Position numbers and translations under genes: made by a program | Notes under the pieces: generated by a model | Seen by the model: only the letters and a program-made list of their open reading frames with translations | Databases searched by the model: none | Told to the model about the DNA's origin: nothing | Shown here: positions 7,775-42,171 of the stretch, one piece after another | Layout: each line of letters opens with the position of its first letter | Numbering within the stretch: position 1 is the first letter of the stretch | Source of the DNA: Clostridia bacterium | GTDB taxonomy: Bacteria; Bacillota; Clostridia; Christensenellales; RUG350 | Direction: 5' to 3' | Assembly: GCA_017631635.1 (NCBI GenBank) | Contig: JAGBSX010000004.1 | Span: 1,692 to 65,691 of the forward strand | DNA: 64,000 nucleotides

Positions 7775-7778
7775 AATG

Positions 7779-8996: not shown

Positions 8997-9007
8997 CTAT
9001 ACCTCAA

Positions 9008-9124: not shown

Positions 9125-9136
9125 TTTATTTTTTAG

Positions 9137-9165
9137 ATTATACCACACATGACATACATTGTCAA
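9137..9165 (-). promoter_or_regulatory. sigma-A promoter of the pyr operon
   Basis: Perfect TTGACA-17-TATAAT with extended -10 TG. Confidence 0.85.
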
Positions 9166-9236
9166 ACTATATGAGGTCATATACTCAAATTTGTCAAAAT
9201 TCTATAAAACGTCAAAACCTTGCCTAGTTTGCACCA

Positions 9237-9265
9237 AAAAAGACACCCAAGTCTAAACTTGGGTG
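9237..9265 (-). terminator. intrinsic terminator of the pur operon
   Basis: Stem CACCCAAG/CTTGGGTG plus T run on the minus strand, after the purL stop. Confidence 0.75.
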
Positions 9266-9272
9266 CTTAATT

Positions 9273-25501: not shown

Positions 25502-25749
25502 ATCTCGCCCACATCTTTTGCATCAGAGTTCTCGTCTACCTCTTTTGTAGCCGAATTCTCGTCAACATTTGCAGGCGTCTGACTACCGTCTGGGGCTGTC
25601 AGCACTCCTAGTAGCACTAGCACTCCTGATAGCGCCGTCACTACTTCATTGACGTAATCTGCATCTATCCTGATGCCCAACGTAGTGAGCAATATCACTA
25701 CTGCTCCACATAGCGACATCCAAAATGATACCGTCCTAAATTTATTCAT
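25498..25749 (-). CDS. holin-like small membrane protein
   Basis: 83 aa. N-terminal KFRTVSFW, two hydrophobic helices, GVLT motif and a charged tail. Confidence 0.6.
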   Translation of the reverse strand: MNKFRTVSFWMSLCGAVVILLTTLGIRIDADYVNEVVTALSGVLVLLGVLTAPDGSQTPANVDENSATKEVDENSDAKDVGEI

Positions 25750-25979
25750 ACTCCCTCCTTTTTGTCCGCGTTGAGATGAGAATCTAGCGAACCTTTTATC
25801 TCCTTGATATCTTCTTTAATCTCTTCGACGGCTTGTAGTGAGGAGGCAAGTCGAGATATCACTTCTTGGTATTTATTTTCTCTCTTGCGACTGTCTGTCA
25901 GTAGGTACACTAGCAGACTGACGAACAACAACGCCCATAGTCCGTTCGTCGCAGCCTCTTGTATCAAACTTTCCCACAT
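25746..25979 (-). CDS. BhlA/UviB-family holin-like protein
   Basis: NGLWALLFVSLLVYLL...RKRENKYQEVI pattern: one TM helix plus a coiled coil. Confidence 0.75.
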   Translation of the reverse strand: MWESLIQEAATNGLWALLFVSLLVYLLTDSRKRENKYQEVISRLASSLQAVEEIKEDIKEIKGSLDSHLNADKKEGV

Positions 25980-26005
25980 ATTAGCCTCCTATTGCTTGGT
26001 TTAGT

Positions 26006-26923
26006 TTACTTTTTCATCATCAGATAGTATCTGAGTCTATCGTAGTACAGTCCTAGGTATTGCTTGAGCGACTCGTCTCTCTCCAATTCCTCTAGGGCAG
26101 TAGCCTTGGGCAAATCGTCGTAATATGATAGCGCTACGGTGTATCTTCGCTCATAATTGTCCTTCTTGTAGCCACTATATCCGTGCTCTGCCTCATACGC
26201 CTCTTGCTCGGCTTTGAGTTGCTTTTGCTGTTCTTGAAATTTGGCTCTCTCTGCTTGGTAGGCACTCTCCTTCTTGTCTATCTCGTTGTTGTACTTGATT
26301 ATCTTGTCGTTGGTGTCTTTGAGTTGGGCTTTGAGTTTGTCTATGTGATTTTGCACCTCTTGGGCATAACGTATCTCATAGTTATCTAATGCCTTGTCCA
26401 ACTCCTCTTGGTAAGTGTCTATCTCTGCGTCGAGAGTCTCTTGCTTGATAGTCAATTTGTCTATCTCTGCCTGCACGTCCATATCCTTGAGTGTATCTAT
26501 CTCCTCAGATACGCTATCTGGTATGGAGGAGTTCGCCACTCCCTTGTCTACGGCGTTGAGTCTCGCTTCTTTCTTGTCCTCATCAGCATCTTCTTCGATA
26601 GCAGATATATGAGCGTCGCTATTTTTCTCATTGGCGATTTTCTCATCCTCTATCTTGGATATCTCCCTCTCTACGCTTGCCTTTTTGTCGGCTATCTTCT
26701 CATCTACCTCAGGTCTCAATTCTTCTTTGGCCTGAGATTCTATCTCTTCATCTGTCTTGGAGACTACCTCTAGTTTCGTTAGTCCTAGCGTCTCAGGCAT
26801 AGTGGGTACGGGATTTTCTCTGTCGTACTCATCTTGCAAAGATTGTAGTTGGTCGTACATATCTCGCTTGCTAGCCTTTTTGCTCTCGTTAAGGGTAGTC
26901 ACCTTTTGAATATCAATCTTCAT
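26006..26923 (-). CDS. acidic coiled-coil protein, possible virion or ejection protein
   Basis: 305 aa, rich in E/D/K/Q, heptad-like. RBS GGAGG. Lies within the phage-like operon. Confidence 0.6.
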   Translation of the reverse strand: MKIDIQKVTTLNESKKASKRDMYDQLQSLQDEYDRENPVPTMPETLGLTKLEVVSKTDEEIESQAKEELRPEVDEKIADKKASVEREISKIEDEKIANEKNSDAHISAIEEDADEDKKEARLNAVDKGVANSSIPDSVSEEIDTLKDMDVQAEIDKLTIKQETLDAEIDTYQEELDKALDNYEIRYAQEVQNHIDKLKAQLKDTNDKIIKYNNEIDKKESAYQAERAKFQEQQKQLKAEQEAYEAEHGYSGYKKDNYERRYTVALSYYDDLPKATALEELERDESLKQYLGLYYDRLRYYLMMKK

Positions 26924-26977
26924 ATCTGTATACCTCCGGTATTTGATTTAGATGCTTGATGCGTCTCTTGTACAAGT

Positions 26978-27088
26978 TTAGAGTGATTTCGTCCATATAC
27001 TCTTCATCTCCTCTACCTTTTTCTCTAGGTAATGTATACGCATCTGCATATCCTCTATATCTAGTCTTAATCTATTTAATTTATCCAT
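26978..27088 (-). CDS. 36-aa coiled-coil micro-ORF, overlapped by a second open frame (26913-27071)
   Basis: Manual translation MDKLNRLRLDIEDMQMRIHYLEKKVEEMKSIWTKSL. GAGG RBS overlaps the upstream stop. Confidence 0.4.
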   Translation of the reverse strand: MDKLNRLRLDIEDMQMRIHYLEKKVEEMKSIWTKSL

Positions 27089-27095
27089 AATTACC

Positions 27096-28577
27096 TCACG
27101 TGTAGTCTATCACTATGACGGGAGAGGTGATGCTCATCTCACTCTCATAGCACCTAAACTCTATACTCATCTTGTCAAAACGCCTATTGACAGGCACTTT
27201 GCGTGTGTATCCACCCTTGAGGTCGTAGCGATACCTATCGCCGTCTAGTGTGACGAACATCTTGGTATCACCCTTGGGAGTGAGAGTGATAGAACGCAAC
27301 AGTTTGCATTTGTCTGGATAACCGACGTCCGTCAATCCACTCACCCACTTCTTCTCTAGCCTAGTACCATACAGAGCGCCACTATCGTCTAGTTGGCAAT
27401 AATTCATATTCTCTATGCCGATAGGAGACCTATTGAACATATACAATTTCGCTCCGTTTCTCCCCTTGAAGCATAGCAAGTTGTCTACTTTTATACCTTT
27501 GACAATCTCCACTTCTTTGGTACGCATATCGTATAGAATAATGCTATTTACGTTAGGATTGTATCTGTCGTGTGGCTCTCCCTCCGAGAGTGGCTCGCCA
27601 TAGTCTAATAATGCCGTCACTACGTACTTGGAGTCGTAGTAGCAACCTTGTCCAAAACTAGCCTTTTTGGCTCGTAGCGAATCATAACTGTCCATCACTT
27701 TGTACGCATCTACTCCGTCAAATACGAATACTCCCTCCTCACTACAAAACATTATCTTGTCTGCACATACGGTGATAGTGTCGGGGTATATCATGCCAGA
27801 GGATACCAATATCCTGCGCATAGAAAATTCGGATTGGTTGCTGTATGCCGTGATTCTGTACACACCGTATTCGCAAAATACGTACACGTAGTCCAAAAAA
27901 CTCACCACTTTGTACGGTCTGCCACACGTGTGGTCTATATCTATATATCCACCTGCATCATAGGAGACTTCCCAGTTGTCAGGTTGCATAGGAGCGCTAA
28001 ACCATACTCTAGGACTCGTAGCACCCGATACTCCAAATATTCTCTCATAATGCTTGCATATAGAGACGACTCTGGGCGAATTCTCTACCAAAGTGAGATG
28101 AGTATCGTCTAGTATGTAAATACCCAAACTAGACGCTATGATTAGCACGTCTTTGTCGTCGTAATGGTAGTTGATAGCATCTCCAAAGGTGAGTACCGTA
28201 CTAGTATGCAGAGATGTTCCCTCTTGCACACTCCTATTGATATATACCTCTATGATACTCTCGTCGTCAGTCATGACTATCCTGTCGTCCCACTCTCCAG
28301 TCTTGTTGTCGTATCTGTGGTACTGCCATGTCTTGGTTGGGACTAAGCCATAACATCTGAGTTGATAAGTCTCGCCACTATTAGTCTGATAAGTAGCCTT
28401 GTCTATGCCGTAGGAGGAGACTATCGCTCCGTTTTTGACAGCGCAGTTGTACATGAGTTTGGCTGTGTCTAGCGACAATATATTCTCCTCCACGTCTGCT
28501 CTAGGTTGTCTAAACCTATCTAGCCTCATCCTCCTACGAGTAGGGCGTGGAGTACGTGTAGAACTATTGACTATCAT
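27096..28577 (-). CDS. putative tail nozzle / head-stabilisation protein (P22 gp10 / T7 gp12-like)
   Basis: 493 aa, beta-rich, with HYERIFG, RVWFS and VFCEYGVYRI segments. Follows the adaptor-like gene. Confidence 0.55.
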   Translation of the reverse strand: MIVNSSTRTPRPTRRRMRLDRFRQPRADVEENILSLDTAKLMYNCAVKNGAIVSSYGIDKATYQTNSGETYQLRCYGLVPTKTWQYHRYDNKTGEWDDRIVMTDDESIIEVYINRSVQEGTSLHTSTVLTFGDAINYHYDDKDVLIIASSLGIYILDDTHLTLVENSPRVVSICKHYERIFGVSGATSPRVWFSAPMQPDNWEVSYDAGGYIDIDHTCGRPYKVVSFLDYVYVFCEYGVYRITAYSNQSEFSMRRILVSSGMIYPDTITVCADKIMFCSEEGVFVFDGVDAYKVMDSYDSLRAKKASFGQGCYYDSKYVVTALLDYGEPLSEGEPHDRYNPNVNSIILYDMRTKEVEIVKGIKVDNLLCFKGRNGAKLYMFNRSPIGIENMNYCQLDDSGALYGTRLEKKWVSGLTDVGYPDKCKLLRSITLTPKGDTKMFVTLDGDRYRYDLKGGYTRKVPVNRRFDKMSIEFRCYESEMSITSPVIVIDYT

Positions 28578-29107
28578 GAGAACCTCCTAGCCTTGATAGT
28601 GGCTGATTCGTTCCTAGTAGCGCTGATAATACCGTCTGTAAACTTCTTGTCAAATTTCAAACTCTCCTCATAGCGCTGTCTAATCATAGCAAATTCGGAC
28701 GCTATACCATAGCCTAGTACTCTCTCAGTCAATCTAACTGGTAGGATGACCTCGTCCTCCAACTCGTATGCCTCTGGTATATACCTATAGTTGACTATCG
28801 CATTAGACAGTCTATTTACCTTGATATAATCGTGCATCACTCTATACTCCACGGGATTACCGTCTAGGGTGTATACGCATTTGATAGCATAGCATTTGCG
28901 TGGCAAACTTGATAGAGGTATCTTGTCGTCTACGACTGCCACCTTTTGCTCTGCTAGGTATGGTATAAACTGCTCGGCTATCTGCGAAAATATCGAATTG
29001 GCACTATGCACCAGTAGTCTAGTATCCGTGTGTGTATCGTCGTCTAGTATACTGTCGTCTATCTCTAGTAGTATGCAAGTGTCTTTTAGTATTTCTCTCA
29101 ACGTCAT
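28574..29107 (-). CDS. putative head-tail adaptor (tail tubular A-like)
   Basis: 177 aa, with YRYIP...LGYGIASEF segment. Position after capsid genes matches podovirus synteny. Confidence 0.5.
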   Translation of the reverse strand: MTLREILKDTCILLEIDDSILDDDTHTDTRLLVHSANSIFSQIAEQFIPYLAEQKVAVVDDKIPLSSLPRKCYAIKCVYTLDGNPVEYRVMHDYIKVNRLSNAIVNYRYIPEAYELEDEVILPVRLTERVLGYGIASEFAMIRQRYEESLKFDKKFTDGIISATRNESATIKARRFS

Positions 29108-29109
29108 AT

Positions 29110-29481
29110 CTATATCTCCTTGTATTGAGGCATCACTCTGGTACGGGTAGTATCGATATATTTGCCCAGTTGATTAGCCTTGTATCTCATCTCGTCAATT
29201 TGTTGACTCTCCATATCTCGAGTGATTTTTTCGTTTTGACAATCCATCTCTTGGATAAATTTCTCCACGTTGTCCACTCTAGTACGTAGCACTCTATCTA
29301 TCGCCCTACAATCTAGCGAATCATAAGGCAACACCACGCAAAGCGTAGGTTTTTGCCTTGCGTGGTGTATCTCATAACGGTGCTTGGTCAAATTGTACAC
29401 GGGATAATATCCATCGTCTATCTCTCTGAGCCTATCGGCCACGTCGTACACGTCGCCCCTAATATGCACCAGTCTATCCAT
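29110..29481 (-). CDS. hypothetical phage-like protein
   Basis: 123 aa ORF with RBS, in operon after the capsid gene. Confidence 0.65.
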   Translation of the reverse strand: MDRLVHIRGDVYDVADRLREIDDGYYPVYNLTKHRYEIHHARQKPTLCVVLPYDSLDCRAIDRVLRTRVDNVEKFIQEMDCQNEKITRDMESQQIDEMRYKANQLGKYIDTTRTRVMPQYKEI

Positions 29482-29483
29482 AA

Positions 29484-30656
29484 TTATTTGGTCAATCCTG
29501 TGATGACACCCATAGCGCCTGGTCTATCGCAGATAAGTTCGGCGTACTTGACCAAGGTAGCAGTAAAGACAGGTAGACCTGGCTTTTGTTGAAGTATCTT
29601 GCCATTTTCACTCTCTAGCCATCTCCAATCGCATAGTTGATGCATCTTGAAGTCCTCACTATTGATGAAGTACATAGAACCTCTATCTATGAATTTGCTT
29701 GCGACCAATGGTACTCCGTTGAAAGCCACGGACTTAAATCCACCGTCTAGTTCCATATAGTCGATATTTCGTCTATTGGTATCTAGCAACTTGATATACG
29801 TTCTACGCAATGCATAGGTAGTAGCGATATAGTCGACGGTCGAATTAAATCTCTCCTCTATACGGTCCTCGATATCTTGCAACAAAGATAGTGACATAGA
29901 AGAAGATTGACTGCACTCCGATACGTAAGGCTTGAGCCAATCGTTGCTATATCTCTCTATACCGTAGATATTTTCGTTAAACGCTACACCTTTGAGACCA
30001 GTGATCTCATTGTCCTTAGAGCCTTGCACGTATATAGATACGTTTTCGCCTGGTACTGCCTTGAGAGGATTGTCCAATACTACGTAATTCTCTGCCTCTA
30101 GCACCTCTTTGATACGCGCTGAGCCGATACTCTCTCCATTTTCCTCATACACCTCTATCACTAGACCTGGGTGCAAATACTTGCTGTCTTGGATAGGTAG
30201 ATAGTATGGTGAATTGAAATTTTGGTAATCTACATTACCTGTGGTAAGTAGACCGCTACCATTACCGTATAGCATACGTGATAGGTTGTATTTGCTAGCC
30301 TTGATGAGACCTTCCATCTCGTTGGTCAATAGGTTGATAAACGCACCTGCAGTATTCTCACTAGCACGTATAGCCTTGTCACTAATCTCAATAGTGCCGA
30401 ATATATTCTTGAGAGTAGTCTTGAACTGTGTGTATGCGTTGCTACTAGCCATAGGTAGAGCACCTGCCTCGCTACCACATCCTATACCACCGTTGATACC
30501 ATAAGGTACTAGTTTGACTAGTTCTTTGCCCCATACGTCTTGGGAAGTCTGCTCGATCTTGGTGAGAAGTGGATCTGTCTTTAAGTTAAGTTGTTCTGCG
30601 ACGACACCTAGATACAATGTCTTGAGTGCGTCTTCTGCTGTAGTTAATGTAATCAA
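29484..30656 (-). CDS. phage major capsid protein (HK97-fold type)
   Basis: 390 aa, TTG start with AAGGAG. GTIEISDKAI, LSRMLYGNGSG, FNGVPLVASKF and YAELIC..P segments typical of capsid proteins. Sits after portal and scaffold. Confidence 0.8.
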   Translation of the reverse strand: MITLTTAEDALKTLYLGVVAEQLNLKTDPLLTKIEQTSQDVWGKELVKLVPYGINGGIGCGSEAGALPMASSNAYTQFKTTLKNIFGTIEISDKAIRASENTAGAFINLLTNEMEGLIKASKYNLSRMLYGNGSGLLTTGNVDYQNFNSPYYLPIQDSKYLHPGLVIEVYEENGESIGSARIKEVLEAENYVVLDNPLKAVPGENVSIYVQGSKDNEITGLKGVAFNENIYGIERYSNDWLKPYVSECSQSSSMSLSLLQDIEDRIEERFNSTVDYIATTYALRRTYIKLLDTNRRNIDYMELDGGFKSVAFNGVPLVASKFIDRGSMYFINSEDFKMHQLCDWRWLESENGKILQQKPGLPVFTATLVKYAELICDRPGAMGVITGLTK

Positions 30657-30684
30657 TTTTTTGTTCTCCTTTTTTTTAGTTGGC

Positions 30685-31239
30685 TTATTTTAGCATCTTG
30701 TATGCCATAGCCGAAGCCTCACGAATAGTGCGAGGTTTTTTGGCAGGGGTCACGAATACTTCTCCGCCTCTAGCCATAATAGTAGGCGAATTCATATCAG
30801 CCAACGACTCTATATAATCGGCTATAATCTTTTGTCTAATTCTCTCGTTTGTGTAAACGTATCCGTCCAAAAAGTCGTCGTCTTGTACCATATCCTCAGG
30901 AGTCTTGTATTCTTGGGCAAGTATCTTGAGTAATGCCAAAGATAGACCTTCTTCGTTAGTGGCTAACGAAGGTTCGTCCAACAAGATTTTTCCTATCTTT
31001 CCTGCGTATCGGCGTGCGAGAGGATATATGGATATGAATTCGGCTATCTTATCCTGCCAATCCTCTCTCTGATATAGTGGCAAGGTCGTAGCATTATCCT
31101 CTACGACCTTGTTGTCACTCACGTTTTGTTCGTACTCTTTGAGTTGCTGACATTTTTTGGTAAACTCAGCCTCTAGTTTGAGGTACGCCTCGTATAATGC
31201 TTGTTCATCTTTAAATTTTCCGTATTTATTGTTGCTCAT
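30685..31239 (-). CDS. putative capsid scaffolding protein
   Basis: GKFKDEQALYEAYLKLEAEF resembles podovirus scaffold N-termini. Lies between portal and capsid. Confidence 0.6.
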   Translation of the reverse strand: MSNNKYGKFKDEQALYEAYLKLEAEFTKKCQQLKEYEQNVSDNKVVEDNATTLPLYQREDWQDKIAEFISIYPLARRYAGKIGKILLDEPSLATNEEGLSLALLKILAQEYKTPEDMVQDDDFLDGYVYTNERIRQKIIADYIESLADMNSPTIMARGGEVFVTPAKKPRTIREASAMAYKMLK

Positions 31240-33076
31240 TTTGTATCTCCTTAACTGAATTGATATCTTGGTAGGCTATATGTTCTCTGATGTGTCTATC
31301 TATAGCCTCGTTGTCTCTGTGTGATATTAGTGCTTTGGTGTGTTCTTCTACGTGTAGTTTGTGATCGTCAAATTCGTTGACCGTAGCACCGTCGCCACGT
31401 AGTAGCGACATATTTTCGCTGACTGCTACCTTGTGATGTACCTCTGTGACGTCGGTGGCTAAGTCTGGGAGCGAAAATCCTAGCGCCTCCACTAGTTTTG
31501 ACTTCGCTCTAGGTGTGAGATTGCCATTTTCGTCATGTAGTAGTCCCATCTTGTACATCTCAATGAGGGTATTTCTCCTACTTTCTGGACTATACAGAGC
31601 CTCTGCTCCAGTCTCAAATACTATATAATCCACGTCGATATCTGCCCTAGAGAAATAGAATACCTCTATATCGCCATTTTCTCCACTGTGTCTCTTGAGT
31701 CTAGTACCTCCTGCGAACTGCTTGTATAGGCGTAGGATTTGAGAAGACAACTCCTTCATAGCATTCCTGATGCTGTCTGCACTACCTATCATACGAGTAT
31801 CGTCCTGCTCTAGTAGGAGATTGATAGCCTTACCAGATGCGTTGAGAGTAGGTACGGATGAATACTGCATAGTCTCACTCACTCCGCTGATAGAGGTAAA
31901 CTCCTTGAGCAGTCTCTCCTCTTCGTACAAAAAGTCGTTTGGCAAACTGCCACCGTCTAGTAGTCTAGGAGGGGTGCTACCTTGTCGGTATATGAGAATC
32001 TTGCCTGGAGACAATCCCTCTTCCTCTAGATTGTCCGTATCTACGCTACCGTCCTCTACTGCTAGCACACCCATAGATATACGGTTGATAAATTCGTGCT
32101 TGCGATTTTTGATAGCGTTGAAAGCCCTCTGCACAGGGATACTTCTCTCTATGACGCTGACTCCAAAAAATGCTCCTGGTATCAGCACCGAAGTCTGCCG
32201 GACAAAAGGAAAAGTCCTCTCTCCTCCCACTCCGTTGATATATGGCAAGTCTCCGTCGTAGAGTATCTTGTCGGAGGCTACTATAGTCAATCTGCCTAGT
32301 GGTCTATCCTTAGTAGGGGCTGTGTATCTCTCTATGACGATAGCGTGATTTGACTTCTTGCTACTGCTCATCTTGGGGACGGTAGCAGTATAGCCTAGTC
32401 CACCTAGCACGTCGGAGTTGTCCATAGAGAATACGTCCACCTCTTCGGCAGTCACATCCTCACCCCATATATCTTTGATATATGCTATATCGTATGCCTT
32501 GGCGTGTATAATACTTCTACAGTCACTCACTTTGGCACAATTTAGCGAGTCGGGGTATATCTCATAAGGTGGACAAACGCTGATCTGCACGTCTCCCTCT
32601 TTGATACTCTTTTTGTTCTTGACACCTATCGTTCTACCTGTCGAATTGTCCCAGCCTACCTTATAAAAGACCGTACCACACACCTCGCTCCAAGCATTCG
32701 CCTCGGCGCGAAGCGCTTTGAGATTTTTCTCCTCGGAGACTGCCTTGAGTATCTTGGTGGATAGTCTGGCTGTGTTGATATCCTCATCATCATTTGACGA
32801 CGGTCTCACGCTGACTTCGGCATCTACTCTAGTGAGTTTGGCTATACGCGTCTCCATGATAGGCGCTATATGATTGTATACCTCTCTCTCTTGCCAAAAA
32901 TACTGCTTGCCCACGTCCTCTATCTCTCCTCTAGGAGATATCTCCGTGTATTGATTGCCTAGCAAAAAGTTCATATTTAGACGCCATTGTAATTCGTACG
33001 ACCTGCGTTCTTCTCGTCTTCTGTCAAAGTCTCTATGGACGTCTTGCAATAGTTCTTCATAAAACTGTTTCTTCAT
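31226..33076 (-). CDS. phage portal protein (P22-like)
   Basis: 616 aa, with FLLGNQY, YNHIAPI, PVQRAFN and SISGVSE...SGKAI..LLEQD segments. Follows the terminase genes. Confidence 0.8.
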   Translation of the reverse strand: MKKQFYEELLQDVHRDFDRRREERRSYELQWRLNMNFLLGNQYTEISPRGEIEDVGKQYFWQEREVYNHIAPIMETRIAKLTRVDAEVSVRPSSNDDEDINTARLSTKILKAVSEEKNLKALRAEANAWSEVCGTVFYKVGWDNSTGRTIGVKNKKSIKEGDVQISVCPPYEIYPDSLNCAKVSDCRSIIHAKAYDIAYIKDIWGEDVTAEEVDVFSMDNSDVLGGLGYTATVPKMSSSKKSNHAIVIERYTAPTKDRPLGRLTIVASDKILYDGDLPYINGVGGERTFPFVRQTSVLIPGAFFGVSVIERSIPVQRAFNAIKNRKHEFINRISMGVLAVEDGSVDTDNLEEEGLSPGKILIYRQGSTPPRLLDGGSLPNDFLYEEERLLKEFTSISGVSETMQYSSVPTLNASGKAINLLLEQDDTRMIGSADSIRNAMKELSSQILRLYKQFAGGTRLKRHSGENGDIEVFYFSRADIDVDYIVFETGAEALYSPESRRNTLIEMYKMGLLHDENGNLTPRAKSKLVEALGFSLPDLATDVTEVHHKVAVSENMSLLRGDGATVNEFDDHKLHVEEHTKALISHRDNEAIDRHIREHIAYQDINSVKEIQNEQQ

Positions 33077-33296
33077 CTTGCTTTTCCTCTTTTTTCTTCC
33101 TATTTTTGCTCAACATATTGTTGATGCCTTTGGGGACGATTAGTTTTCCTATACTCTCGTACATCTCTCCTAGACAATGCTCGCATATGTTTAGTTGAGT
33201 ACGAATATCCCCTCCCTTACTAAACGAATAGGTTGCCAAATTGTCGCAACCACCCATATCGCATCTTACTGTAGTATTTAGTTTTGTAGTTATCAT
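33057..33296 (-). CDS. small Cys-rich (putative Zn-finger) protein
   Basis: 79 aa with CDMGGC...CEHC. Coupled to neighbouring genes. Confidence 0.6.
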   Translation of the reverse strand: MITTKLNTTVRCDMGGCDNLATYSFSKGGDIRTQLNICEHCLGEMYESIGKLIVPKGINNMLSKNRKKKEEKQDEETVL

Positions 33297-33559
33297 AAAT
33301 CCTCCATTTCTTTTAATTCTTCTAGCAGTTTTTCTCTCTCTGCCACGAGTTCTTCTTCACTCATATCGTCGTATTCGCTACTCTCACCATCTATCCCCAT
33401 GATTACCTTGATAGAGGACAAATCGGGTGGCACGTGTTTGGTAGTCACACGCCTCTTTTTGAGAGAGACCTCTCCGTCTACCACGTCGTATTCTTCTACC
33501 ACCTCTTGGGTGTCGTAGCCTCTTGCTTTTTTGCGCAATATCTTGTCTATGTCTTCCAT
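33293..33559 (-). CDS. terminase small-subunit-like protein lacking the N-terminal HTH
   Basis: LRKKARGYDTQE...TTKHVPPD matches the C-terminal oligomerisation motif of a firmicute TerS family. Only 88 aa. Confidence 0.6.
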   Translation of the reverse strand: MEDIDKILRKKARGYDTQEVVEEYDVVDGEVSLKKRRVTTKHVPPDLSSIKVIMGIDGESSEYDDMSEEELVAEREKLLEELKEMEDL

Positions 33560-35022
33560 TTTTTACCTCCGTATCTGCGTACTTGCCTAATCAGTCGATT
33601 TTTGTCCTTGCCTATCACGGACAACTGCTCCTCTATCTTGGGTGGCTCGGGGCGTGAGGCTACGTAATACCTCAATTCGTCTAGCGCGTGGTCGTCTACC
33701 TTGACAGGTCTATCACCCTTGCCGTAGCGATAGGATTTGAGTTCTCTAATCATATTGACACACGACCTAAATATAAATATCTTGGGGGGATCGGTAAACA
33801 ATCCTCTCACTCTAGCGATACCACTCCACACATCCTTGTCTACGCGAGTATTCACCACGATACCTCTATCAAAGAACAAATTGGCTACAGACTTGGGGCT
33901 AGAGAGTGTAGTCTGCTCGGCAGCACTATCTATGAGCGCTGATATACGCCCCTCTTTGTCGGTGGGCCACTCTAGACTCCTCGCTATATCCTTGATAGCC
34001 TTGGCATGATAATCTATATCTCTACCTGCCTCGTAATGCTCGGCTATCACGTATATATTTGAGTCGTAGTCCACTGCATAAAAGTGGCAGGACAAAGGAT
34101 TGTTGAGACCGGGGTCTATAGAGATATTGTCATACCAGTCTTTGGGTACGTCAAAGGGGTCTATCACGTGTATGGCAGGATCAAATTCGGGATACACTAG
34201 TCCGTGCTCCGACCTAAATCTACCGTATCTCCTACTGTCTAGGTCTGCCTGCGACATAGACTTCGTCAACCTCTCCACATCCCTAGGATCTAGATAAGGA
34301 TTGTCTGCCCACTCCATAGAGATATACCATATATCTTCACTCTGGGACAGATATATCCTATCGTGTACCCAAGTCAATCCTTTGAGAGGCGTCATAGTGC
34401 AATATATATCTCCACTACGGTCTAGCACTCTCATCACACACTCGTCATAGATATCTTCTGGTGGCTCTTCGTCAAACCAAACGTAGTCGAGAGACGCTCC
34501 TTGAAATTTTTCTCTACCAGCCTCGCAACTCTTGAAACTAATGGTAGAGGTCGTACCGAATACGTTGCGTATAGTCACGTAGTCTATGATACCATTTTCG
34601 GGAGATGCCCTAGAGCCACTCACCATACCTATCGACACTATCCAAGATGGTGGGAGATATGAGAGTATTTTCTTCTGGGCGACGTCTCTCTGCACCTCAT
34701 AACTGAGTGAGACTACCCAGCCCGTCACACCTGCCTTGTTGGGTAGATAAGGATGTATACCTCTAGCCCTCCATATCGTTTCTACTGCGCCACACTCCGT
34801 CTTGCCACTACGATTTCCTCCAAAAACAAAACGGACCTTTTTGCCCGCTTTGTGAAATGCTATTTGTTTGTGGTGAACCTTGTCCTTGTTGTAGTTATTT
34901 AGTCTAAATTCTGCACGCCGTAGATACAGGTGCTTGTCTATTTGCTTGATTTTGTTGATGATAGTAGATGCGTCCTTGATGCTTTCGCTAGCATCTACTG
35001 TTTTTCGACTGTTTTTTTGCAT
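33547..35022 (-). CDS. terminase large subunit (P22-like)
   Basis: Walker A GGNRSGKT, Walker B VWFDEEP, coupling motif TMTP, nuclease acidic residues ISIDPG and DDHALDELRY. Confidence 0.92.
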   Translation of the reverse strand: MQKNSRKTVDASESIKDASTIINKIKQIDKHLYLRRAEFRLNNYNKDKVHHKQIAFHKAGKKVRFVFGGNRSGKTECGAVETIWRARGIHPYLPNKAGVTGWVVSLSYEVQRDVAQKKILSYLPPSWIVSIGMVSGSRASPENGIIDYVTIRNVFGTTSTISFKSCEAGREKFQGASLDYVWFDEEPPEDIYDECVMRVLDRSGDIYCTMTPLKGLTWVHDRIYLSQSEDIWYISMEWADNPYLDPRDVERLTKSMSQADLDSRRYGRFRSEHGLVYPEFDPAIHVIDPFDVPKDWYDNISIDPGLNNPLSCHFYAVDYDSNIYVIAEHYEAGRDIDYHAKAIKDIARSLEWPTDKEGRISALIDSAAEQTTLSSPKSVANLFFDRGIVVNTRVDKDVWSGIARVRGLFTDPPKIFIFRSCVNMIRELKSYRYGKGDRPVKVDDHALDELRYYVASRPEPPKIEEQLSVIGKDKNRLIRQVRRYGGKKWKT

Positions 35023-35100
35023 ACAATTTGTATTCCTCCTACCTTAGGTATGCTCTAATTCTTTGATTTTTTTCTAACTTCGTGATATAATGCTATAGAG

Positions 35101-35865
35101 GTGCGTATGAAAAAGTTAGCAATCATACTATTTTCTATAGCGATTATGATATCTAGTCTGTCCACCGTTGCTCTAGCAAACGGTAGTTCGCAGGCGTATT
35201 TTAAGGTGACTTATCCTAGCGCCGTACTGTACGTAGATAGTGAGTGTACCCAAGTATATTTTGGCATCACCGAGAACTGCTACGTAGAGATGCTCACTAA
35301 TGGCACGGAGACTTGTAGAGTCTCCTATATGGATATAGAGGGCTATATGGACAGGTCTCACCTATCCGCATCTCCTGCCGAATCTTGGGTGACTGATTAT
35401 CATCACCAAGAGAAGACTATCACTTCGTCAAGGAAGTCATTCCTCTACACCTCGATAGACCTAGAGGACAGTATCGCCGAGATATCCAAAAATGCTACTC
35501 TCACAGTCATAGGTATATATCCACTAGACACTACCCTACTATATTGTAGAGATTCTCTAGGCAACGTAGGATACGTAGAGAGTGGAGATACTAGTTGGTC
35601 TAGTAGTGACACACTACTACCTCCTATCAATTCCAACGGCTCGACCTCTGATGACAATGGTGGCTCTACACCACCACCGTCAAGCGACGTGTCAAACAAC
35701 GCCGACCCTCTACGCATAATACTCATACTAGGCATATGCATACCTGCAGGTATTATCGTATATCTATTGTTCAAACCTGTCACCAAGGTAGACAATAGAT
35801 ACATCAGCGACTCTCCCAAGAAGAGAGGATACTTCGAGGTAGAGGACTACGATTACGAAGAGTGA
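35101..35865 (+). CDS. secreted, membrane-anchored protein with putative SH3b-like repeats
   Basis: Signal peptide, two segments ending in GY[MV], a Ser/Pro/Gly linker, a C-terminal TM helix and an acidic tail. TGN-TATAAT promoter at about 35074-35082. Confidence 0.6.
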   Translation: MRMKKLAIILFSIAIMISSLSTVALANGSSQAYFKVTYPSAVLYVDSECTQVYFGITENCYVEMLTNGTETCRVSYMDIEGYMDRSHLSASPAESWVTDYHHQEKTITSSRKSFLYTSIDLEDSIAEISKNATLTVIGIYPLDTTLLYCRDSLGNVGYVESGDTSWSSSDTLLPPINSNGSTSDDNGGSTPPPSSDVSNNADPLRIILILGICIPAGIIVYLLFKPVTKVDNRYISDSPKKRGYFEVEDYDYEE

Positions 35866-36359
35866 TGATATCCACTCGTGACCAATCGTAGCATCTTTTG
35901 AAAGAGCGTCTCCTCTGCGTACTCCGTCTGGATACGCGTGGCGTCATACCCTACCGAATCAAAATATTTTTGAATAAGTTTGATAGCAGTAGCGTATCTC
36001 CTATAGTAGGTACGTATAGATATTTGCAATGATTTAGCGATGGTGTTTGAATCCATCGCTTTAAAATACTTCAATATCAATACTTTTGAATATATATGAG
36101 GTATATGTGCTAGCCCCTTGTCCACCAATACCTTCATATTGACGATACCTGCCAAACGGTGATTGAGTTGTATAGTAGTCGCTAATAACTTGTCCGTAGA
36201 TATGTGGTGCTTGACGTCATAATCAAACTTGACTCGTTCTCTGAGGTCCTCATTGAGCGCCCTATAATATTTGCCCAAATATCTGTAGCAATAAAGCAAC
36301 GTCTTAGTGTAAGTGTAGTCCAAAATAACGGACTCACTAGCCGTTTTGATAGATTTCAT
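35853..36359 (-). CDS. ArpU/RinA-like or sigma region-4-like HTH transcriptional regulator
   Basis: Start MKSIKT with AGGAGG RBS. C-terminal LILKYFKAMDSNTIAKSLQISIRTYYRRYATA is a region-4-type HTH. Confidence 0.65.
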   Translation of the reverse strand: MKSIKTASESVILDYTYTKTLLYCYRYLGKYYRALNEDLRERVKFDYDVKHHISTDKLLATTIQLNHRLAGIVNMKVLVDKGLAHIPHIYSKVLILKYFKAMDSNTIAKSLQISIRTYYRRYATAIKLIQKYFDSVGYDATRIQTEYAEETLFQKMLRLVTSGYHHSS

Positions 36360-36582
36360 ATTGTGCCTCCTGATTGTAGCGAATTCGCCATCGACCTTGG
36401 GGCTAAAGTCGTGGTACAACTTCGCCTGTATGATTTGATTATATACCCTGATTTTCGCTAAAGTCAAGATTGCGTGCCACAATCGACCAAACTAGTCATT
36501 ATAGTACCATTTTCGACACTTTTCGCTCGATTTATGGCAGACTTACTGCCACTTGTCAAGCCCCTTTCCACCCCCAAAAAGC

Positions 36583-36765
36583 AAAAAAAACACCACCCGT
36601 TAGGGTGTGTTCAATAGAGATTTTTCTCTTATTGGGAGTGGTACGGCACATAGCCGTGCCACTTCCTTTTTTCGTTCAAAAGACTTGCGGGATTGCGCCC
36701 ACTCCGTTGTAGAATATTTCTACTGCCTCTTTTCTTTTGCCATTCGCCTTTTTCGATTGGTGGTA
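36583..36765 (-). ncRNA. candidate structured small RNA or leader
   Basis: TTGACT-17-TATAAG promoter (36794-36766), four hairpins, then a terminator ACACACCC/GGGTGGTGT plus T8. No matching family recognised. Confidence 0.4.
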
Positions 36766-36862
36766 CTTATACAATATAATTTAAGTAAAGTCAACGCCGA
36801 CCTATCCAAAAATACGGACATGTCGGCGTTTTTGAAAAAAGTTTTTCAAATTGGTCAAATTA

Positions 36863-37279
36863 TTATAAATCTTCTTTTATATAATTATATGTACTAACAT
36901 CGATTTCTCCATTGTAAAACTTATCTATAAGCTTTCTATACAAAGATCTATTCGTCTCGTCTATAAGATAAAATAGAGTTAAAGAAGATTGTAATTTAAT
37001 CGCATCTATTTCTCCCATAATTATTGTGGGGCTATTTTCTTTTGTTTGCAACAATATATTACAACACTCTAAATACCGATTGTGTAGAAGTTTATTAGAA
37101 CAAAAAGTTTTTGCCTCCTCTACGTCAGCAATTCCATAAAAAACAGCCCTATCACTTTTCCCAAGAAATCGTAACTGCGGGAAAATATACCACATCCAAT
37201 GAGTTCTCTTTTTCTCATTGCGAAGTTCTTCTATAACATTTTTATAAACATTTTCTTGTGCTTTAATAAATCGTTCCAT
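36863..37279 (-). CDS. DUF1810-family protein
   Basis: MERFIKAQ...KRTHWMWYIFPQL and DAIKLQSSLTLF motifs. Confidence 0.85.
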   Translation of the reverse strand: MERFIKAQENVYKNVIEELRNEKKRTHWMWYIFPQLRFLGKSDRAVFYGIADVEEAKTFCSNKLLHNRYLECCNILLQTKENSPTIIMGEIDAIKLQSSLTLFYLIDETNRSLYRKLIDKFYNGEIDVSTYNYIKEDL

Positions 37280-37331
37280 CTTTAGCCATTTCTCTCCTTT
37301 GTTATTTTACTGATTCTTCGACGGGAGCGAT

Positions 37332-37685
37332 TTACTCCATAGGTTTAATCATTGATTCGATTAAGATGATTTCATCTTCGGTTAAAGCTTTATGCCAATC
37401 TTTACGCAATTCGTTAAGTTTCTTAAATCCTTGTATAATTAAAAAGTTTTCAGCATTTATAAATTGTTGCCTGTAATCATCTTCTGCCGGCATATTGTTT
37501 CTATTCGCAGTATTCCATAGAACTCTCTCTAAAAAATACTTGTTAGTCAAATCGAATATATGCCTTTTCATCTCTTCAAATCTATTGTAATAATAAAGTG
37601 TGCGAAGTTTATCAACATCATCTAACAAATCTTTTATTTCTTTAATATCCTTAAAAGTTTCCAATGTCGCTCTAAAGTCACTCAT
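37332..37685 (-). CDS. hypothetical protein
   Basis: 117 aa with AAGGAGG RBS. No recognised motif. Confidence 0.65.
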   Translation of the reverse strand: MSDFRATLETFKDIKEIKDLLDDVDKLRTLYYYNRFEEMKRHIFDLTNKYFLERVLWNTANRNNMPAEDDYRQQFINAENFLIIQGFKKLNELRKDWHKALTEDEIILIESMIKPME

Positions 37686-37911
37686 TTTTATTTTCCTCCT
37701 TTGTTTTTCTTGGATTATATAACAAAGTTGTTAAACTTAATCTTGACAAATCCTTAACAAAACTTAATTTTGCTTATTATATCATGAAAATTGCAATTTG
37801 TGTATCTACAAAACATCTACAATTGGACTACTTTCGGGATATTTTTACTATTTTTTAATAAAAAAATTAAATTATACTCGTCCTATTTTTCACTATAAAT
37901 GCTATCCCAAA

Positions 37912-40014
37912 TCAATTATCTTCCCCAACTGCAATCTGAAACCAACCAACTAAATCATATATCTCTATCAATTGTTTTGCATAATATCTAGCACGATTAG
38001 AACTAATGCACCCCTCAACATAATAAATCGTACCTTTTATTCCAATTGGTTCTGTAAGTAATGTTGAATTATCGGAAATTATAGGGTCTTTCAAACCTTC
38101 AATTTTTTTCGATGTAGATTTATGTACCGTGTTATTTTCAACTATTTCCACAAATTTCTCTCGATCGAAATCGTACAGAATTTCACAAACAATTGGTAAT
38201 ACGTCTTTCCATTTAGTAATTGGATATTCTTTATCGTCAAATCTAATCAAAGTGGGCTTTTCGCCTTCCATTGGTGTAACATCATCAGACATATCGTAAA
38301 CACCTGCTTCAAATTCAAATGTAGGTGCCTTGGTATCATAATCGCGAGTACGTTTTAACGGAGCAGTGATGGCTATGCAAATCCTGTTCGCAATTTCTTC
38401 ATTTCTATCCTTTATTTGTTCTTCTTTCCACTCACGATATTTATCGTTTTTTGCTATTTCATTTGTAATTACAAATTGAACGTCCGCAATATGTTTTAAT
38501 TTTACACCCCAAGCTTTATTTGAATTTTTAGAATTGTAACCTTGCGACATAGGAACTAAATTTCCTATACAATTCAAATACTTATTGCGCATATCTTTTG
38601 CGTTTTCTTCACCGCCATAATATTGAATCCACCAAGGGGAGAATGTTTGTGGCATAAGATGTTCCATTGTTACTTTGGTTATATCCACAGGAATATTGCA
38701 CCGTTCGTATTCTTCGGTCTTTACCAAAATAGCCCTTGCGTAATTAACATTAACACTTTCTTTTAGGTTTTGCTTAAATTCTTCATCGTCCGGGAATCTT
38801 CCTGCGGGAGAACTGCTATTTGATAACTCAAAATAGATATTATCATAACTACATTCTAAGCCGCCGTCAATCTTTCTTAATAATTGGTTGACGACAGTTC
38901 TCATTGCACCCCCACCACCTGAAACAGCACAAACTCTATACCTTGCCATATAATCAAACAATAAGTTCAATATTTTTTCAAGCTCTCTCGACTTGTTTAT
39001 ATACAGTTTATCAAACAAGCATAAATATAGTGGCATTAAATCGTCTGTTTTCAAAAGATTTAACATAATTATAAGCTTGTTTATCTTTTCATTTTCACAA
39101 TTTTCGAACTTGAAATAGGCAAAATATTTTGCATATCTACTCATTTCATCAAGAATTTCTATGTGGGTTATTTCTGGTTGATTTACATAATCATCTCTGA
39201 ATTTTTTATAAATCTTTTCCTGTTCAACATCTTCAAAGATTTTCATAACCAAAAAATCGCGAGCAAATCTTGAAATGTTTTCATTTGAAACAGTTCTTTC
39301 AATTTTTATCCAATAATTTTTATACAACAACTCTTGTTCTTCAATGGAATTGGAAAGCAACAAGCAGTTTCTTATCAAATCCGCAGGCGATAATCTTTTT
39401 CCTGTCGAATTGATTTTTTCAAAGACGGTTTGTACCGCTTCAAGATTATCTTCTATTTGCAAGTTTACATCAACAACTTCCAACTTCGTAATAGTATTAT
39501 AAATATCTTTAAGTGGAATCGACGATTCCCTTAACAACGAGATAAAATGAAAATAGTTTTTAATGATATTATTTTTCTTGTCGTTTTCTCTTACTAGACC
39601 TTTTACAACCATATTGAAACTATCGGCATCATACGACGTTTGTTTTAATCTAACTCTATATAAATCTCCGCCATTGTCGTTCTCTAAATATCTAATCGTG
39701 ATATTTTCGTCGGGAATATTTTGTCTTTTCATTTCATCACGAATTGCACACAATAAAAGTAGAATCGTTGTAACACGTTGTTGTCCGTCAACCAATATAA
39801 ATTCACTAAACGAAGCTCCATTATTTTTTCCTTCATAGTAAACTATATTACCAAGGTAATGCGTTTTTTTAGACTTATAGGAATTAATTATATCTTCAAA
39901 TAATTCATCGCATTGTTCGAACGACCATTCGTAATTACGTTGAAAGGGTGGAATAATAAATACTTTATCCAATCCACCTATAAACTTCAAAATGTTTGTT
40001 TCGCTTGCTTTCAT
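37912..40014 (-). CDS. GmrSD-type modification-dependent restriction protein (DUF262 + DUF1524 HNH) with extra C-terminal domain
   Basis: IPPFQRNYEW, VDGQQRVTT, FEKINSTGKRLS, and TMEHLMPQ...IGNLVP..NSKNSN. About 140 extra C-terminal residues. Confidence 0.88.
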   Translation of the reverse strand: MKASETNILKFIGGLDKVFIIPPFQRNYEWSFEQCDELFEDIINSYKSKKTHYLGNIVYYEGKNNGASFSEFILVDGQQRVTTILLLLCAIRDEMKRQNIPDENITIRYLENDNGGDLYRVRLKQTSYDADSFNMVVKGLVRENDKKNNIIKNYFHFISLLRESSIPLKDIYNTITKLEVVDVNLQIEDNLEAVQTVFEKINSTGKRLSPADLIRNCLLLSNSIEEQELLYKNYWIKIERTVSNENISRFARDFLVMKIFEDVEQEKIYKKFRDDYVNQPEITHIEILDEMSRYAKYFAYFKFENCENEKINKLIIMLNLLKTDDLMPLYLCLFDKLYINKSRELEKILNLLFDYMARYRVCAVSGGGGAMRTVVNQLLRKIDGGLECSYDNIYFELSNSSSPAGRFPDDEEFKQNLKESVNVNYARAILVKTEEYERCNIPVDITKVTMEHLMPQTFSPWWIQYYGGEENAKDMRNKYLNCIGNLVPMSQGYNSKNSNKAWGVKLKHIADVQFVITNEIAKNDKYREWKEEQIKDRNEEIANRICIAITAPLKRTRDYDTKAPTFEFEAGVYDMSDDVTPMEGEKPTLIRFDDKEYPITKWKDVLPIVCEILYDFDREKFVEIVENNTVHKSTSKKIEGLKDPIISDNSTLLTEPIGIKGTIYYVEGCISSNRARYYAKQLIEIYDLVGWFQIAVGEDN

Positions 40015-40076
40015 AAAATTTCTCCTTCGTTTTTTCTATTCTCTACACTAAATATGACAGTTTTGGTCATATTTAC

Positions 40077-40862
40077 TTATTTTCTCTCCCTTAACCTTAA
40101 CCTTCTAAAAAATGTTGCTCTACTTATTTTTAATATCAAAGACGCTTGGTCTGCGGATATTTTCCCATGCAAATAATCATTTGCAACTCTATCAAAGAGT
40201 AATGGATCAATTTTTATTTGTCCACGACCTTTATAAACATTTTGTTCTTTCGCTTTTTCTATTCCACACCTTCTAAGCCTTTTTTTGCGCTCAAATTCAC
40301 GGATATACATCGGCATTAAAAGTCTGTAATAGTAAAGGCGAGATTTGTCGTCTATTATAATATCATCAGCATAAAGATAATCGCCAAAGCAAATAATTTC
40401 AAGCAATTTTTTATTGAGACTATCCGACCTTCTTACCAAATCGTACATAGAGCGCTCTTTATAACTAACAGCATCTTTACCGTCAAAAGGCATAACGAAA
40501 AATCTATCGCCTGAATATCTCTTGTTTGTTTTAATGAGCCATTCTAAGCGGTTCAATGCTTGCATACCGCTTTCTTCCATCAACGCCCACAAATCTTCAC
40601 GATGTTCACTTGGCGTTCTTTCCTCAATAAAAGTGGGAACTATATTCTTACGTTCATATACGGCTCTTTTCAAACTCAAATCAAGTCCGGGAATACCCTG
40701 AAATAAGTGGTCAGGCAACATATCAATAACGTTATAAAATGGACGAAATATATAGTTAAATGCACCGTCTTCCCATTCTTCATATTCAATTTTAGCAATT
40801 TTGTAAATGAACTTATAATCGTCTTCAAGACAGATAAAGCCCATTGTAGTTAACTTTCTCAT
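40077..40862 (-). CDS. HipA-N-terminal/HipS-like protein fused to a serine-resolvase-type C-terminal arm and HTH
   Basis: N-terminal PTFIEERTP..HREDLWALM...NRLEWLIKTN..YSGDRF. C-terminal EFERKKRLRRCGIEKAKEQNVYKGR...ISRATFFRRL. Confidence 0.65.
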   Translation of the reverse strand: MRKLTTMGFICLEDDYKFIYKIAKIEYEEWEDGAFNYIFRPFYNVIDMLPDHLFQGIPGLDLSLKRAVYERKNIVPTFIEERTPSEHREDLWALMEESGMQALNRLEWLIKTNKRYSGDRFFVMPFDGKDAVSYKERSMYDLVRRSDSLNKKLLEIICFGDYLYADDIIIDDKSRLYYYRLLMPMYIREFERKKRLRRCGIEKAKEQNVYKGRGQIKIDPLLFDRVANDYLHGKISADQASLILKISRATFFRRLRLRERK

Positions 40863-40863
40863 T

Positions 40864-41721
40864 TTATTTCTCCGTTAATTTCTTGTAAGCGGGGAGCAAT
40901 ATTTTTTCAAATCTTTGTCTTAATATATATTTGTAAAATTCTTTATGGGTATCGGTTAAAAACGTGGTTTCGTCAATCAATTCGTCGATTTTTTTTTGCG
41001 AATATCTTTCACATATTTTTATAACCGCTTCATTACATTCCTGAAACTCTAATGAATTAATTACTTCAAAATACGAACTCTTTTTGCCGTTTAATTGAAC
41101 TTGCGACGTGGGGAATTTATAAATCCTTTCGTTTGTCATTTCTTCCGACTGCATAATTTGTTTCATCATATCATCATCTACAAGCTGAGAATAAAGTGAT
41201 GAGCCATTGTCAAAAACGGGGGCAAGTGTATATTTGTTGTTCTTTTTTAAGAATCCCCAATTCCCACCGTGTCTATCAAAGTTGCCAATTAATGCGTCTA
41301 CAACGTAAATATCCCAAAACATACTTATCGTTTCTTGAACGTTTGTAAGTTTTACATTATCTCGAAGCATTTGCATTATATCTTGATAGGAATATTGATA
41401 GGTTTCCTTGTCTTGTTCAAGCGAACTTTCGCCAACATCGTTAAAGGGCACGAATTGCGTTTCGCCGTTAATAAAATTTTTGCACGCCACAACTTGCTCG
41501 CCATTGTATAATCCAAGATAGGTGTCTTGCGTTTCAAAGCCAAGCAACTCAAAAATATGCGAGCCGACGTACTCAGAGATGTGATTAAGACGTTTTACAC
41601 CGAAATTTGTTTGCTTTTGAAATTTAATCATATATTCAAAGCCGTCAACATTTACGCCAAATTTACGTTCTGTTCCACCGTAATATGTGTTAGTTCTTTC
41701 GTATTTTGAAAAGTCTATCAT
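40864..41721 (-). CDS. HipA-like / CtkA-family Ser/Thr kinase
   Basis: YYGGTERKFGV, YMIKF, SEYVGSHIF, IGNFDRHGGNWG and APVFDNGSSL motifs. Confidence 0.85.
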   Translation of the reverse strand: MIDFSKYERTNTYYGGTERKFGVNVDGFEYMIKFQKQTNFGVKRLNHISEYVGSHIFELLGFETQDTYLGLYNGEQVVACKNFINGETQFVPFNDVGESSLEQDKETYQYSYQDIMQMLRDNVKLTNVQETISMFWDIYVVDALIGNFDRHGGNWGFLKKNNKYTLAPVFDNGSSLYSQLVDDDMMKQIMQSEEMTNERIYKFPTSQVQLNGKKSSYFEVINSLEFQECNEAVIKICERYSQKKIDELIDETTFLTDTHKEFYKYILRQRFEKILLPAYKKLTEK

Positions 41722-41771
41722 ATAATCTCCTCAATAAATCAATAGGGTTATGTTTCTATTTTGACACAATA

Positions 41772-41800
41772 ACAATAACACATATTAGAAGTAATGTCAA
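41772..41800 (-). promoter_or_regulatory. promoter of the kinase operon
   Basis: TTGACA (41800-41795), 17 nt spacer, TATTGT with TG extension. Confidence 0.55.
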
Positions 41801-42095: not shown

Positions 42096-42171
42096 TGGAG
42101 CTGGTGACGGGACTTGAACCTGCGACCTGCTGATTACGAATCAGCTGCACTACCGACTGTGCTACACCAGC
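42096..42171 (-). tRNA. tRNA-Thr(CGT)
   Basis: GCTGGTGTAGCACAGTCGGTAGTGCAGCTGATTCGTAATCAGCAGGTCGCAGGTTCAAGTCCCGTCACCAGCTCCA: full cloverleaf, anticodon loop TT-CGT-AA, encoded CCA. Confidence 0.96.

Follow-up and report, generated by a model that had tools for sequence, protein, structure and literature searches.

Gene transfer agents (GTAs) form particles filled with random host DNA whose pieces are too short to contain the genes encoding the particles, and they lack genes for integrase, excision and replication. In the present study, we analyzed a 64,000-nt stretch of the genome of a Clostridia bacterium assigned to the Christensenellales (assembly GCA_017631635.1, contig JAGBSX010000004.1, positions 1,692 to 65,691 of the forward strand; hereafter referred to as the window), which harbors a podovirus-like head-packaging module of about 11 kb. 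The module encodes an 88-aa protein, p88, that is homologous to phage small terminases (TerS), has lost the N-terminal helix-turn-helix (HTH) domain, and is encoded directly after the gene for the large terminase (terL).

TerS proteins usually consist of a DNA-binding domain, an oligomerization domain and a tail that binds the large terminase (TerL) (PMC6854486). RcGTA gp1 (rcc01682), the TerS of the gene transfer agent RcGTA, has no DNA-binding domain, and its DNA binding is weak and non-specific (Sherlock, Leong and Fogg, 2019; PMC6854486). It shifts DNA only at micromolar concentration, whatever the sequence, and its C-terminal helix binds TerL (PMC6854486). According to the same study, GTA-type TerS are about 10-50% shorter than their phage counterparts, and the GTA TerS genes predicted there are all located immediately upstream of terL, with products predicted to be almost all-helical (PMC6854486). 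A first-pass annotation of the window, made from the DNA sequence alone, had cited the weak, non-specific binding of the RcGTA protein, as this paper states; it had also held that the protein works with the regulator GafA, which the paper does not bear out, GafA occurring in it only as the name of a primer. Among gut Clostridia, a possible TerS without a DNA-binding domain (CDS15) has been described for FpGTA I of Faecalibacterium prausnitzii, upstream of TerL; the TerL (RCH50852) of this element adjoins the portal (RCH50851), and its capsid is of the N4-gp56 type (PMC12946183, Nat Commun 2026). Further, virus-like particles of Christensenellaceae from human stool showed GTA-like packaging, with fragments of 4.1 and 7.1 kb for HGM11616 and of 6.3 kb for QANA01, for which no locus was identified (PMC12946183).

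The p88 gene and its parts were located in the window as follows:

33293-33559, minus strand: p88, 88-aa HTH-less small-terminase homologue (open reading frame list, sequence read)
33398-33538, minus strand: conserved core of p88, residues 8-54, KKAxGY...KxKVTxKxVPPD (PHROG match, AlphaFold2 model, hhalign columns)
33299-33367, minus strand: acidic C-terminal helix of p88, residues 65-87, MSEEELVAEREKLLEELKEME (family consensus, hhalign to the TerS C-terminus)
33566-33570, minus strand: Shine-Dalgarno sequence GGAGG, 6 nt before the p88 ATG and within the terL 3' end (sequence read)

The position of this open reading frame (ORF) agreed exactly with the first-pass annotation. Its translation (MEDIDKILRKKARGYDTQ...TTKHVPPD...EELKEMEDL; full 88-aa sequence MEDIDKILRKKARGYDTQEVVEEYDVVDGEVSLKKRRVTTKHVPPDLSSIKVIMGIDGESSEYDDMSEEELVAEREKLLEELKEMEDL) contains KKARGY at residues 10-15 and KHVPPD at residues 41-46. 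The stop-to-stop frame (33296-33562) leaves a single codon upstream of the ATG, and a hidden N-terminal domain is therefore impossible. On the minus strand, terL (33547-35022) is followed by p88, a gene for a 79-aa Cys-rich protein (33057-33296) and the portal gene (31226-33076). The p88 gene overlaps terL by 13 nt at the terL stop, and the gene downstream overlaps p88 by 4 nt. No second TerS-like ORF was found upstream of terL or elsewhere in the 64-kb window.

On its own, p88 gave a single PHROG match, a weak one to phrog_309 "terminase small subunit" (E 0.011), in which residues 8-54 align with positions 202-242 of the 319-position profile. Across the p88 family, phrog_309 was matched by 50 of 52 members, with a best E value of 1.3e-10, and a second TerS family, phrog_23444, by 24 of the 52. 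As canonical TerS we used eight proteins from annotated phages: Enterococcus EH-TP1 gp31, Bacillus cereus CUBc25, Terrisporobacter TVCOM_ph1, C. difficile phiCDHM19 gp1, CUS-3, Faecalibacterium FP_Brigit, Acinetobacter ZC3 and Lactococcus Tuc2009 orf30. When the p88 family was aligned with this set by hhalign, the probability was 97% (E 1e-10), and p88 columns 14-96 corresponded to TerS columns 74-165 of 170. A hidden Markov model (HMM) built from the eight phage proteins matched p88-family ORFs in related loci with E values down to 7.5e-10 and gave no off-target match in these loci, the one extra match being a genuine upstream TerS in the locus L127 (see below). In addition, a fold search of BFVD with the AlphaFold2 (AF2) model of p88 returned as its three best matches proteins that bear the name terminase small subunit, with E values from 4.6e-4 to 6.8e-4. 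The small-terminase identity proposed in the first pass was thus supported by both profile and structure comparison. Judged from these sequence relationships, p88 descends from an HTH-bearing phage TerS of the phrog_309 type. Sf6 gp1 was also considered as a structural relative of p88-type TerS, but the profile search did not recover it and no kinship is claimed.

The AF2 model of p88, with a mean predicted local distance difference test score (pLDDT) of 85, comprises a helix (residues 2-13), two strands (15-27 and 30-43), a second helix (47-56) and a C-terminal helix (68-87); the beta-hairpin spans 29 residues (15-43). The hhalign alignment showed that p88 kept the end of the post-HTH helix, the beta-hairpin, the opening turns of the helix that comes after it and a C-terminal (M/L)(T/S)xEEL..L helix. 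The family consensus of the last, MTDEEL..EK.RLL, aligns with the LTxEEL..L tail of canonical TerS, and comparable tails were NPYAELTKEQLLKL and LSTEELKRLAKL in canonical TerS and LSDEELRAHIARL in the TerS of L127. Two segments were lost. One is the entire N-terminal HTH of about 70 residues, and the other is a basic helical segment, IFWLKNRKPxxWRDK, which follows the PPD motif in canonical TerS and falls in an alignment gap in p88; all eight phage TerS share W119, L120, N122 and R123 of this segment. The N-terminal regions of the three canonical TerS scanned matched Terminase_5 (5.5e-6), HTH_Tnp_1 (6.4e-6) and HTH_23, which are HTH or HTH-containing packaging families, whereas a Pfam scan of p88 and 52 family members detected neither an HTH nor any other domain. 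The absence of the N-terminal HTH, as read in the first pass, was therefore confirmed by Pfam, by hhalign and by the lack of an upstream frame. The loss of the FWLKNRKPxxWRDK segment, the retention of the C-terminal (M/L)(T/S)xEEL helix and the acidity of the protein (pI 4.4) are additions to that reading. With an isoelectric point (pI) of 4.44 and 26 acidic against 14 basic residues, p88 is acidic, and the median pI of the family is 5.3; conserved Lys residues are found on the hairpin in the family.

Phrog_309-type TerS such as EH-TP1 gp31, phiCDHM19 gp1, Tuc2009 orf30, CUS-3 and FP_Brigit thus resemble p88 in the core (LLKRAxGY...K..PPD), in the beginning of the helix after it and in the LTxEEL..L tail. 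Unlike p88, they carry both the HTH and the FWLKNRKPxxWRDK segment, and their genes are located upstream of terL, directly so wherever the fetched stretch includes terL. The predicted provirus L127 (IMG/VR UViG 2887785357_000001, GC content 0.66, 34.8 kb) has a module homologous to that of the window, with TerL 54%, portal 39% and capsid 34% identical. It encodes a full HTH TerS upstream of terL (7120-9579) and no p88-type gene downstream. L127 shows the canonical state beside the p88-linked TerL clade and provides a natural comparison for the domain loss.

To count p88 genes, related loci with a TerL identity of at least 50% and enough downstream sequence were used (n=130). A p88-family gene was present in 126 of them and directly followed terL in 123, so that the terL-then-terS order seen in the window by the first-pass annotation is the conserved one. 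In these 123 loci the conserved core of p88 begins no more than 400 nt past the end of terL, and the median gap is 38 nt. The spacing was 2.8-5 kb in L035, L031 and L075. In L035 (11534-13945), the sole wide-gap locus inspected, the gap is occupied by a gene for an 803-aa secreted, membrane-anchored protein. The median ratio of non-synonymous to synonymous substitution rates (dN/dS) in the p88 family was 0.13 (Nei-Gojobori, 96 pairs). Because the family is carried by 126 of 130 loci, next to terL in 123, and has a dN/dS of 0.13, p88 is not a chance frame and is a genuine, selected gene.

A full HMMER search with p88 retrieved 522 clusters at 50% identity (E ≤1e-3), and those listed were nearly all 85-140 aa in length. 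A profile search yielded 590 p88-type proteins; among the matches listed, every named copy was a "hypothetical protein" and none had a Pfam domain. A word-indexed homologue search with p88 alone as query returned only two near-identical copies; the family came into view only in the full HMMER search and in the genome loci. No match was obtained when p88 was searched by tblastn against 50,697 phage records, and no cultured phage in that collection carries a p88-type gene. Two matches named "Bacteriophage sp.", obtained with a p88 relative as query, yielded no p88-type gene: one lies within an ORF of 185 aa that comes just before one of 504 aa, which is the usual terS-terL layout, and the other lies at the start of a 5.4-kb contig. 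Some family members (P0133, P0134, P0213, P0222, P0244) bear long Lys/Ala-rich, histone-H1-like tails at the N- or C-terminus, which could bind DNA non-specifically. In two others (P0251, P0272), a p88-like N-terminus is fused to unrelated sequence, which in one case runs into a capsid C-terminus and in the other continues into what we take to resemble the C-terminal part of DapB; these fusions are probably artefacts of assembly or gene calling.

Compared with described GTA-type TerS, p88 likewise has no DNA-binding domain at its N-terminus and, at 88 aa, is 41-48% shorter than its TerS relatives (149-169 aa in the three canonical proteins translated). It differs in the terL-then-terS order of the genes and in the long beta-hairpin, which sets it apart from the almost all-helical GTA proteins. 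No sequence relationship was detected between RcGTA gp1 and p88, and p88, unlike gp1, can be traced to an HTH TerS family. Both proteins are encoded in phage-derived clusters without replication or integration genes. For gp1, the weak binding of DNA and the binding of TerL have been measured, whereas p88 is known from its sequence. The p88 module and FpGTA I both come from gut Clostridia, are podovirus-like and about 10.5-11 kb long, and contain TerL, portal, scaffold and capsid genes. They differ in the capsid, which is of the NF033394 capsid_maj_Podo family in the window, and in the two small genes that separate terL from the portal gene here. Identity of the two elements was set aside, since the capsid families differ and terL adjoins the portal gene in FpGTA I; by capsid family and gene order, the p88 module looks like a separate lineage.

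The other genes of the module and its regulator were the following:

33547-35022, minus strand: terL, large terminase, 491 aa (Terminase_6N 2.8e-11, Terminase_6C, phrog_2 2.1e-28)
33057-33296, minus strand: accessory gene, coupled in translation to p88, for a zinc-ribbon-like, Cys-rich protein of 79 aa with a basic tail
31226-33076, minus strand: P22-like portal (P22_portal 6.5e-20, phrog_156 7.6e-40)
30685-31239, minus strand: putative scaffolding protein, 184 aa, by its position between the portal and capsid genes
29484-30656, minus strand: major capsid protein (NF033394 capsid_maj_Podo 9.5e-69, phrog_14242 5.7e-42)
within 25498-29481, minus strand: 123-aa protein, after the capsid gene
28574-29107, minus strand: head-tail adaptor Ad1
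27096-28577, minus strand: virion structural protein, 493 aa
26006-26923, minus strand: DUF7934 protein
25746-25979 and 25498-25749, minus strand: two holin-like genes (BhlA family, phrog_297), at the module end
35853-36359, minus strand: sigma-70 region-4/DUF1492-like regulator (Sigma70_r4_2 3.5e-4, DUF1492 0.0097, phrog_36 1.6e-8)
35101-35865, plus strand: opposite-strand gene encoding a signal peptide and a C-terminal transmembrane segment, no family match

The Walker and nuclease motifs of TerL were invariant across 22 relatives. The putative scaffold gene was present in 65 of 80 loci and matched no Pfam or PHROG family. About 60% of the related loci printed have, between p88 and the portal gene, a Cys-rich gene similar to that of the 79-aa protein (CD...C.N.A ... 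C..C ... VPKS..KK), and the others lack it; the basic C-terminal tail of the window protein reads VPKS..KK..KR. An AF2 model of this protein computed without an alignment had a pLDDT of 53 and was not used. The regulator upstream of the module was conserved in related loci, and a sigma-70-like promoter (TTGACT, an 18-nt spacer and TATAAT) was identified at 36467-36438. The regulator probably starts at the ATG at 36359 and not at the listed TTG at 36482, because the promoter-like site falls inside the longer TTG ORF. The opposite-strand gene occupies the usual place of terS, between the regulator and terL, and at least 50 of 65 related loci have a homologue there. Related loci also share the succession of regulator, opposite-strand gene and terL, with no TerS-sized ORF before terL.

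The module (25498-36482) is made up of podovirus-like head, packaging and holin genes, and its GC content (0.44) equals that of the host flanks, compared with 0.32 in a neighboring island. One flank contains a deaminase gene and groES/groEL, and the other contains the AT-rich island (36800-41800), followed by tRNA-Thr(CGT) (42096-42171). Encoded on the island are a DUF1810 protein, a type IV restriction enzyme of the GmrSD kind (37912-40014), a 261-aa protein whose C-terminal HTH is invertase-like, and a HipA_C-like kinase. The island is missing from a related strain of the goat gut, in which one contig spans the module at about 1% divergence; the joints in that strain were not trusted, the sides being only 20-33 nt long. 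Scans of 24.3-36.5 kb with Pfam, PHROG and NCBIfam detected no integrase, excision, replication or lysogeny genes in or beside the module, and the module contained, as expected for a GTA, only structural, packaging and lysis genes.

When one genome per species was scanned, relatives of the window TerL turned up in at least 581 stretches, and IMG/VR gave 269 more. At 58-68% identity, these TerL relatives were located on contigs of up to about 1.1 Mb, mostly named Christensenellales, Christensenellaceae or Clostridia; those fetched were for the most part MAGs of Christensenellales or of unclassified Clostridia. The identity to TerL of cultured phages was at most about 30%, and in IMG/VR it falls from 54% or more directly to 41%, 33% and about 30%. 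Over a range of 0.28-0.53, the GC content of the module tracks that of its flanks (r = 0.90, n=49 loci). The upstream neighbors in related loci appeared host-like by eye and included secreted proteins, a MATE-type transporter and a GyrA/ParC-like protein. A search for virome or RNA runs that hold the module or a human-gut relative yielded bulk gut metagenomes only, and no RNA.

Taken together, we consider it somewhat better than an even chance that p88 is the TerS of a compact, chromosomal podovirus-like head-packaging module and, being HTH-less, could not pick a pac site, so that packaging would be random, by headful and GTA-like. The proposed mechanism is modeled on RcGTA gp1. In this scheme, p88 would be made by translational coupling with TerL and would self-associate through its retained core. 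Its acidic C-terminal helix, by analogy the TerL-contact segment, would dock on TerL and license or stimulate the nuclease and ATPase of TerL at the portal. Because the site-reading domain is absent and p88 is acidic, it would be unable to select a pac site, and packaging would therefore begin on any DNA at hand and continue in headful fashion, like that of a gene transfer agent. Packaging of this sequence-independent, GTA-like type, as proposed in the first pass, is plausible in the light of RcGTA gp1 and FpGTA. The data above establish the homology to TerS, the HTH loss, the conserved place behind terL, purifying selection and the gene content of the module; from these we infer the oligomerization of p88, its binding to TerL, its lack of sequence specificity and the GTA status of the element. 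A broader proposal, to which we give somewhat less than even weight, is that the p88 family marks a widespread podovirus-like GTA of Christensenellales and related gut Clostridia, that its TerS arose by HTH loss and relocation behind terL, and that it is the source of the 4-7 kb of random host DNA in Christensenellaceae stool particles. A particle of 4-7 kb capacity could not carry the 11-kb module; the assignment of the stool particles to the p88 module is a conjecture.

Several points weigh against random packaging by a GTA. Loss of the HTH alone does not prove it, because other TerS surfaces can bind DNA, as P22 and T4 TerS possess (PMC6854486). The retained core (KKARGY...KHVPPD), read in the first pass as a motif of the oligomerization type, would be the oligomerization domain by its position in the usual TerS layout, and the missing FWLKNRKPxxWRDK segment may be needed for ring formation. 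A Foldseek search of the PDB with the p88 model gave nothing below E 0.1, and PDB sequence searches, made with p88, with the family profile and with the canonical TerS profile, yielded no solved structure of this TerS type, all matches being at HTH level or due to chance. No endolysin or clear receptor-binding protein was recognized in the module; as in FpGTA, further genes may be encoded at a second locus. The genes flanking the module (groESL and others) differ between species and are non-syntenic, and therefore flank synteny is unusable as an argument for vertical descent. Moreover, IMG/VR lists many module copies as viral contigs, and with the variable flanks this leaves some room for a mobile or satellite element. 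The strongest of the other explanations, though an unlikely one, draws on the variable flanks and the viral listings and assigns p88 as TerS to a lineage of bona fide phages, satellites or defective prophages that still packages specifically, with the basic face of the hairpin in an oligomer, the 79-aa protein or TerL reading the DNA. The conserved Lys residues on the hairpin fit this explanation, as do the Lys-rich tails of some relatives, which could supply DNA binding, and the Cys-rich, basic-tailed protein whose gene directly follows p88 in about 60% of the related loci printed and which could act as a DNA-binding partner in trans. The relative L127 (TerL 54%), a predicted provirus of 34.8 kb that has a normal TerS with HTH upstream of terL, points the same way, and so do the phage proteins of about 100 aa returned by BFVD with marginal E values, including a 108-aa Leuconostoc phage protein named TerS. 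However, integrase, replication and lysogeny genes are absent next to the module in the window, the gene for the 79-aa protein is missing from many loci that keep p88, the protein itself is strongly acidic, and no phage in the cultured collection has a p88-type gene. A search for a pac-like repeat array in 32900-36600 gave only two-copy matches at chance level, which is weak evidence against specific packaging. A capsid-forming satellite of the PICI type was set aside, given the absence of integrase and replication genes.

We regard it as rather improbable that p88 is a TerS-derived fragment that does not initiate packaging and instead restrains the TerL nuclease, acts at the portal in head completion, or serves as a decoy for the TerS-TerL pairing of superinfecting phages. 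The loss of two ancestral TerS segments, the atypical gene place between terL and portal and the acidity of the protein would suit such a fragment; yet neither the module nor the window holds another TerS candidate although the TerL motifs are intact, p88 is co-inherited with the TerL clade (126 of 130 loci), and the C-terminal tail it retains is the part that binds TerL in the RcGTA TerS. That the ORF is a chance frame or a decaying, functionless remnant has next to no probability. Its small size, its lack of a Pfam domain and its own weak phrog_309 match (E 0.011) could be taken in that sense, but this reading is refuted by the conservation and selection data (dN/dS 0.13 over 96 pairs, 522 HMMER clusters, conserved position), and the Shine-Dalgarno site, the coupled gene overlaps and the AF2 mean pLDDT of 85 also argue against it.

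GTAs are hard to distinguish from dead prophages, and a TerS without a DNA-reading domain has been proposed as a molecular signature of random packaging. HTH-less TerS have precedents in RcGTA gp1 and FpGTA; for p88, sequence comparison traces the loss of the domain back to a populous family of HTH TerS, which provides a natural before-and-after pair for HTH function. The p88 gene, although unannotated, is a marker of a compact module that occurs in the genomes of several hundred gut species, and a profile of p88 with TerL would make it simple to search Clostridia for candidate GTAs. If packaging by the p88 module proves to be site-specific, the family would show how a TerS works without an HTH. 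The module is also a concrete, testable candidate for the GTA-like packaging of Christensenellaceae observed in stool particles (PMC12946183).

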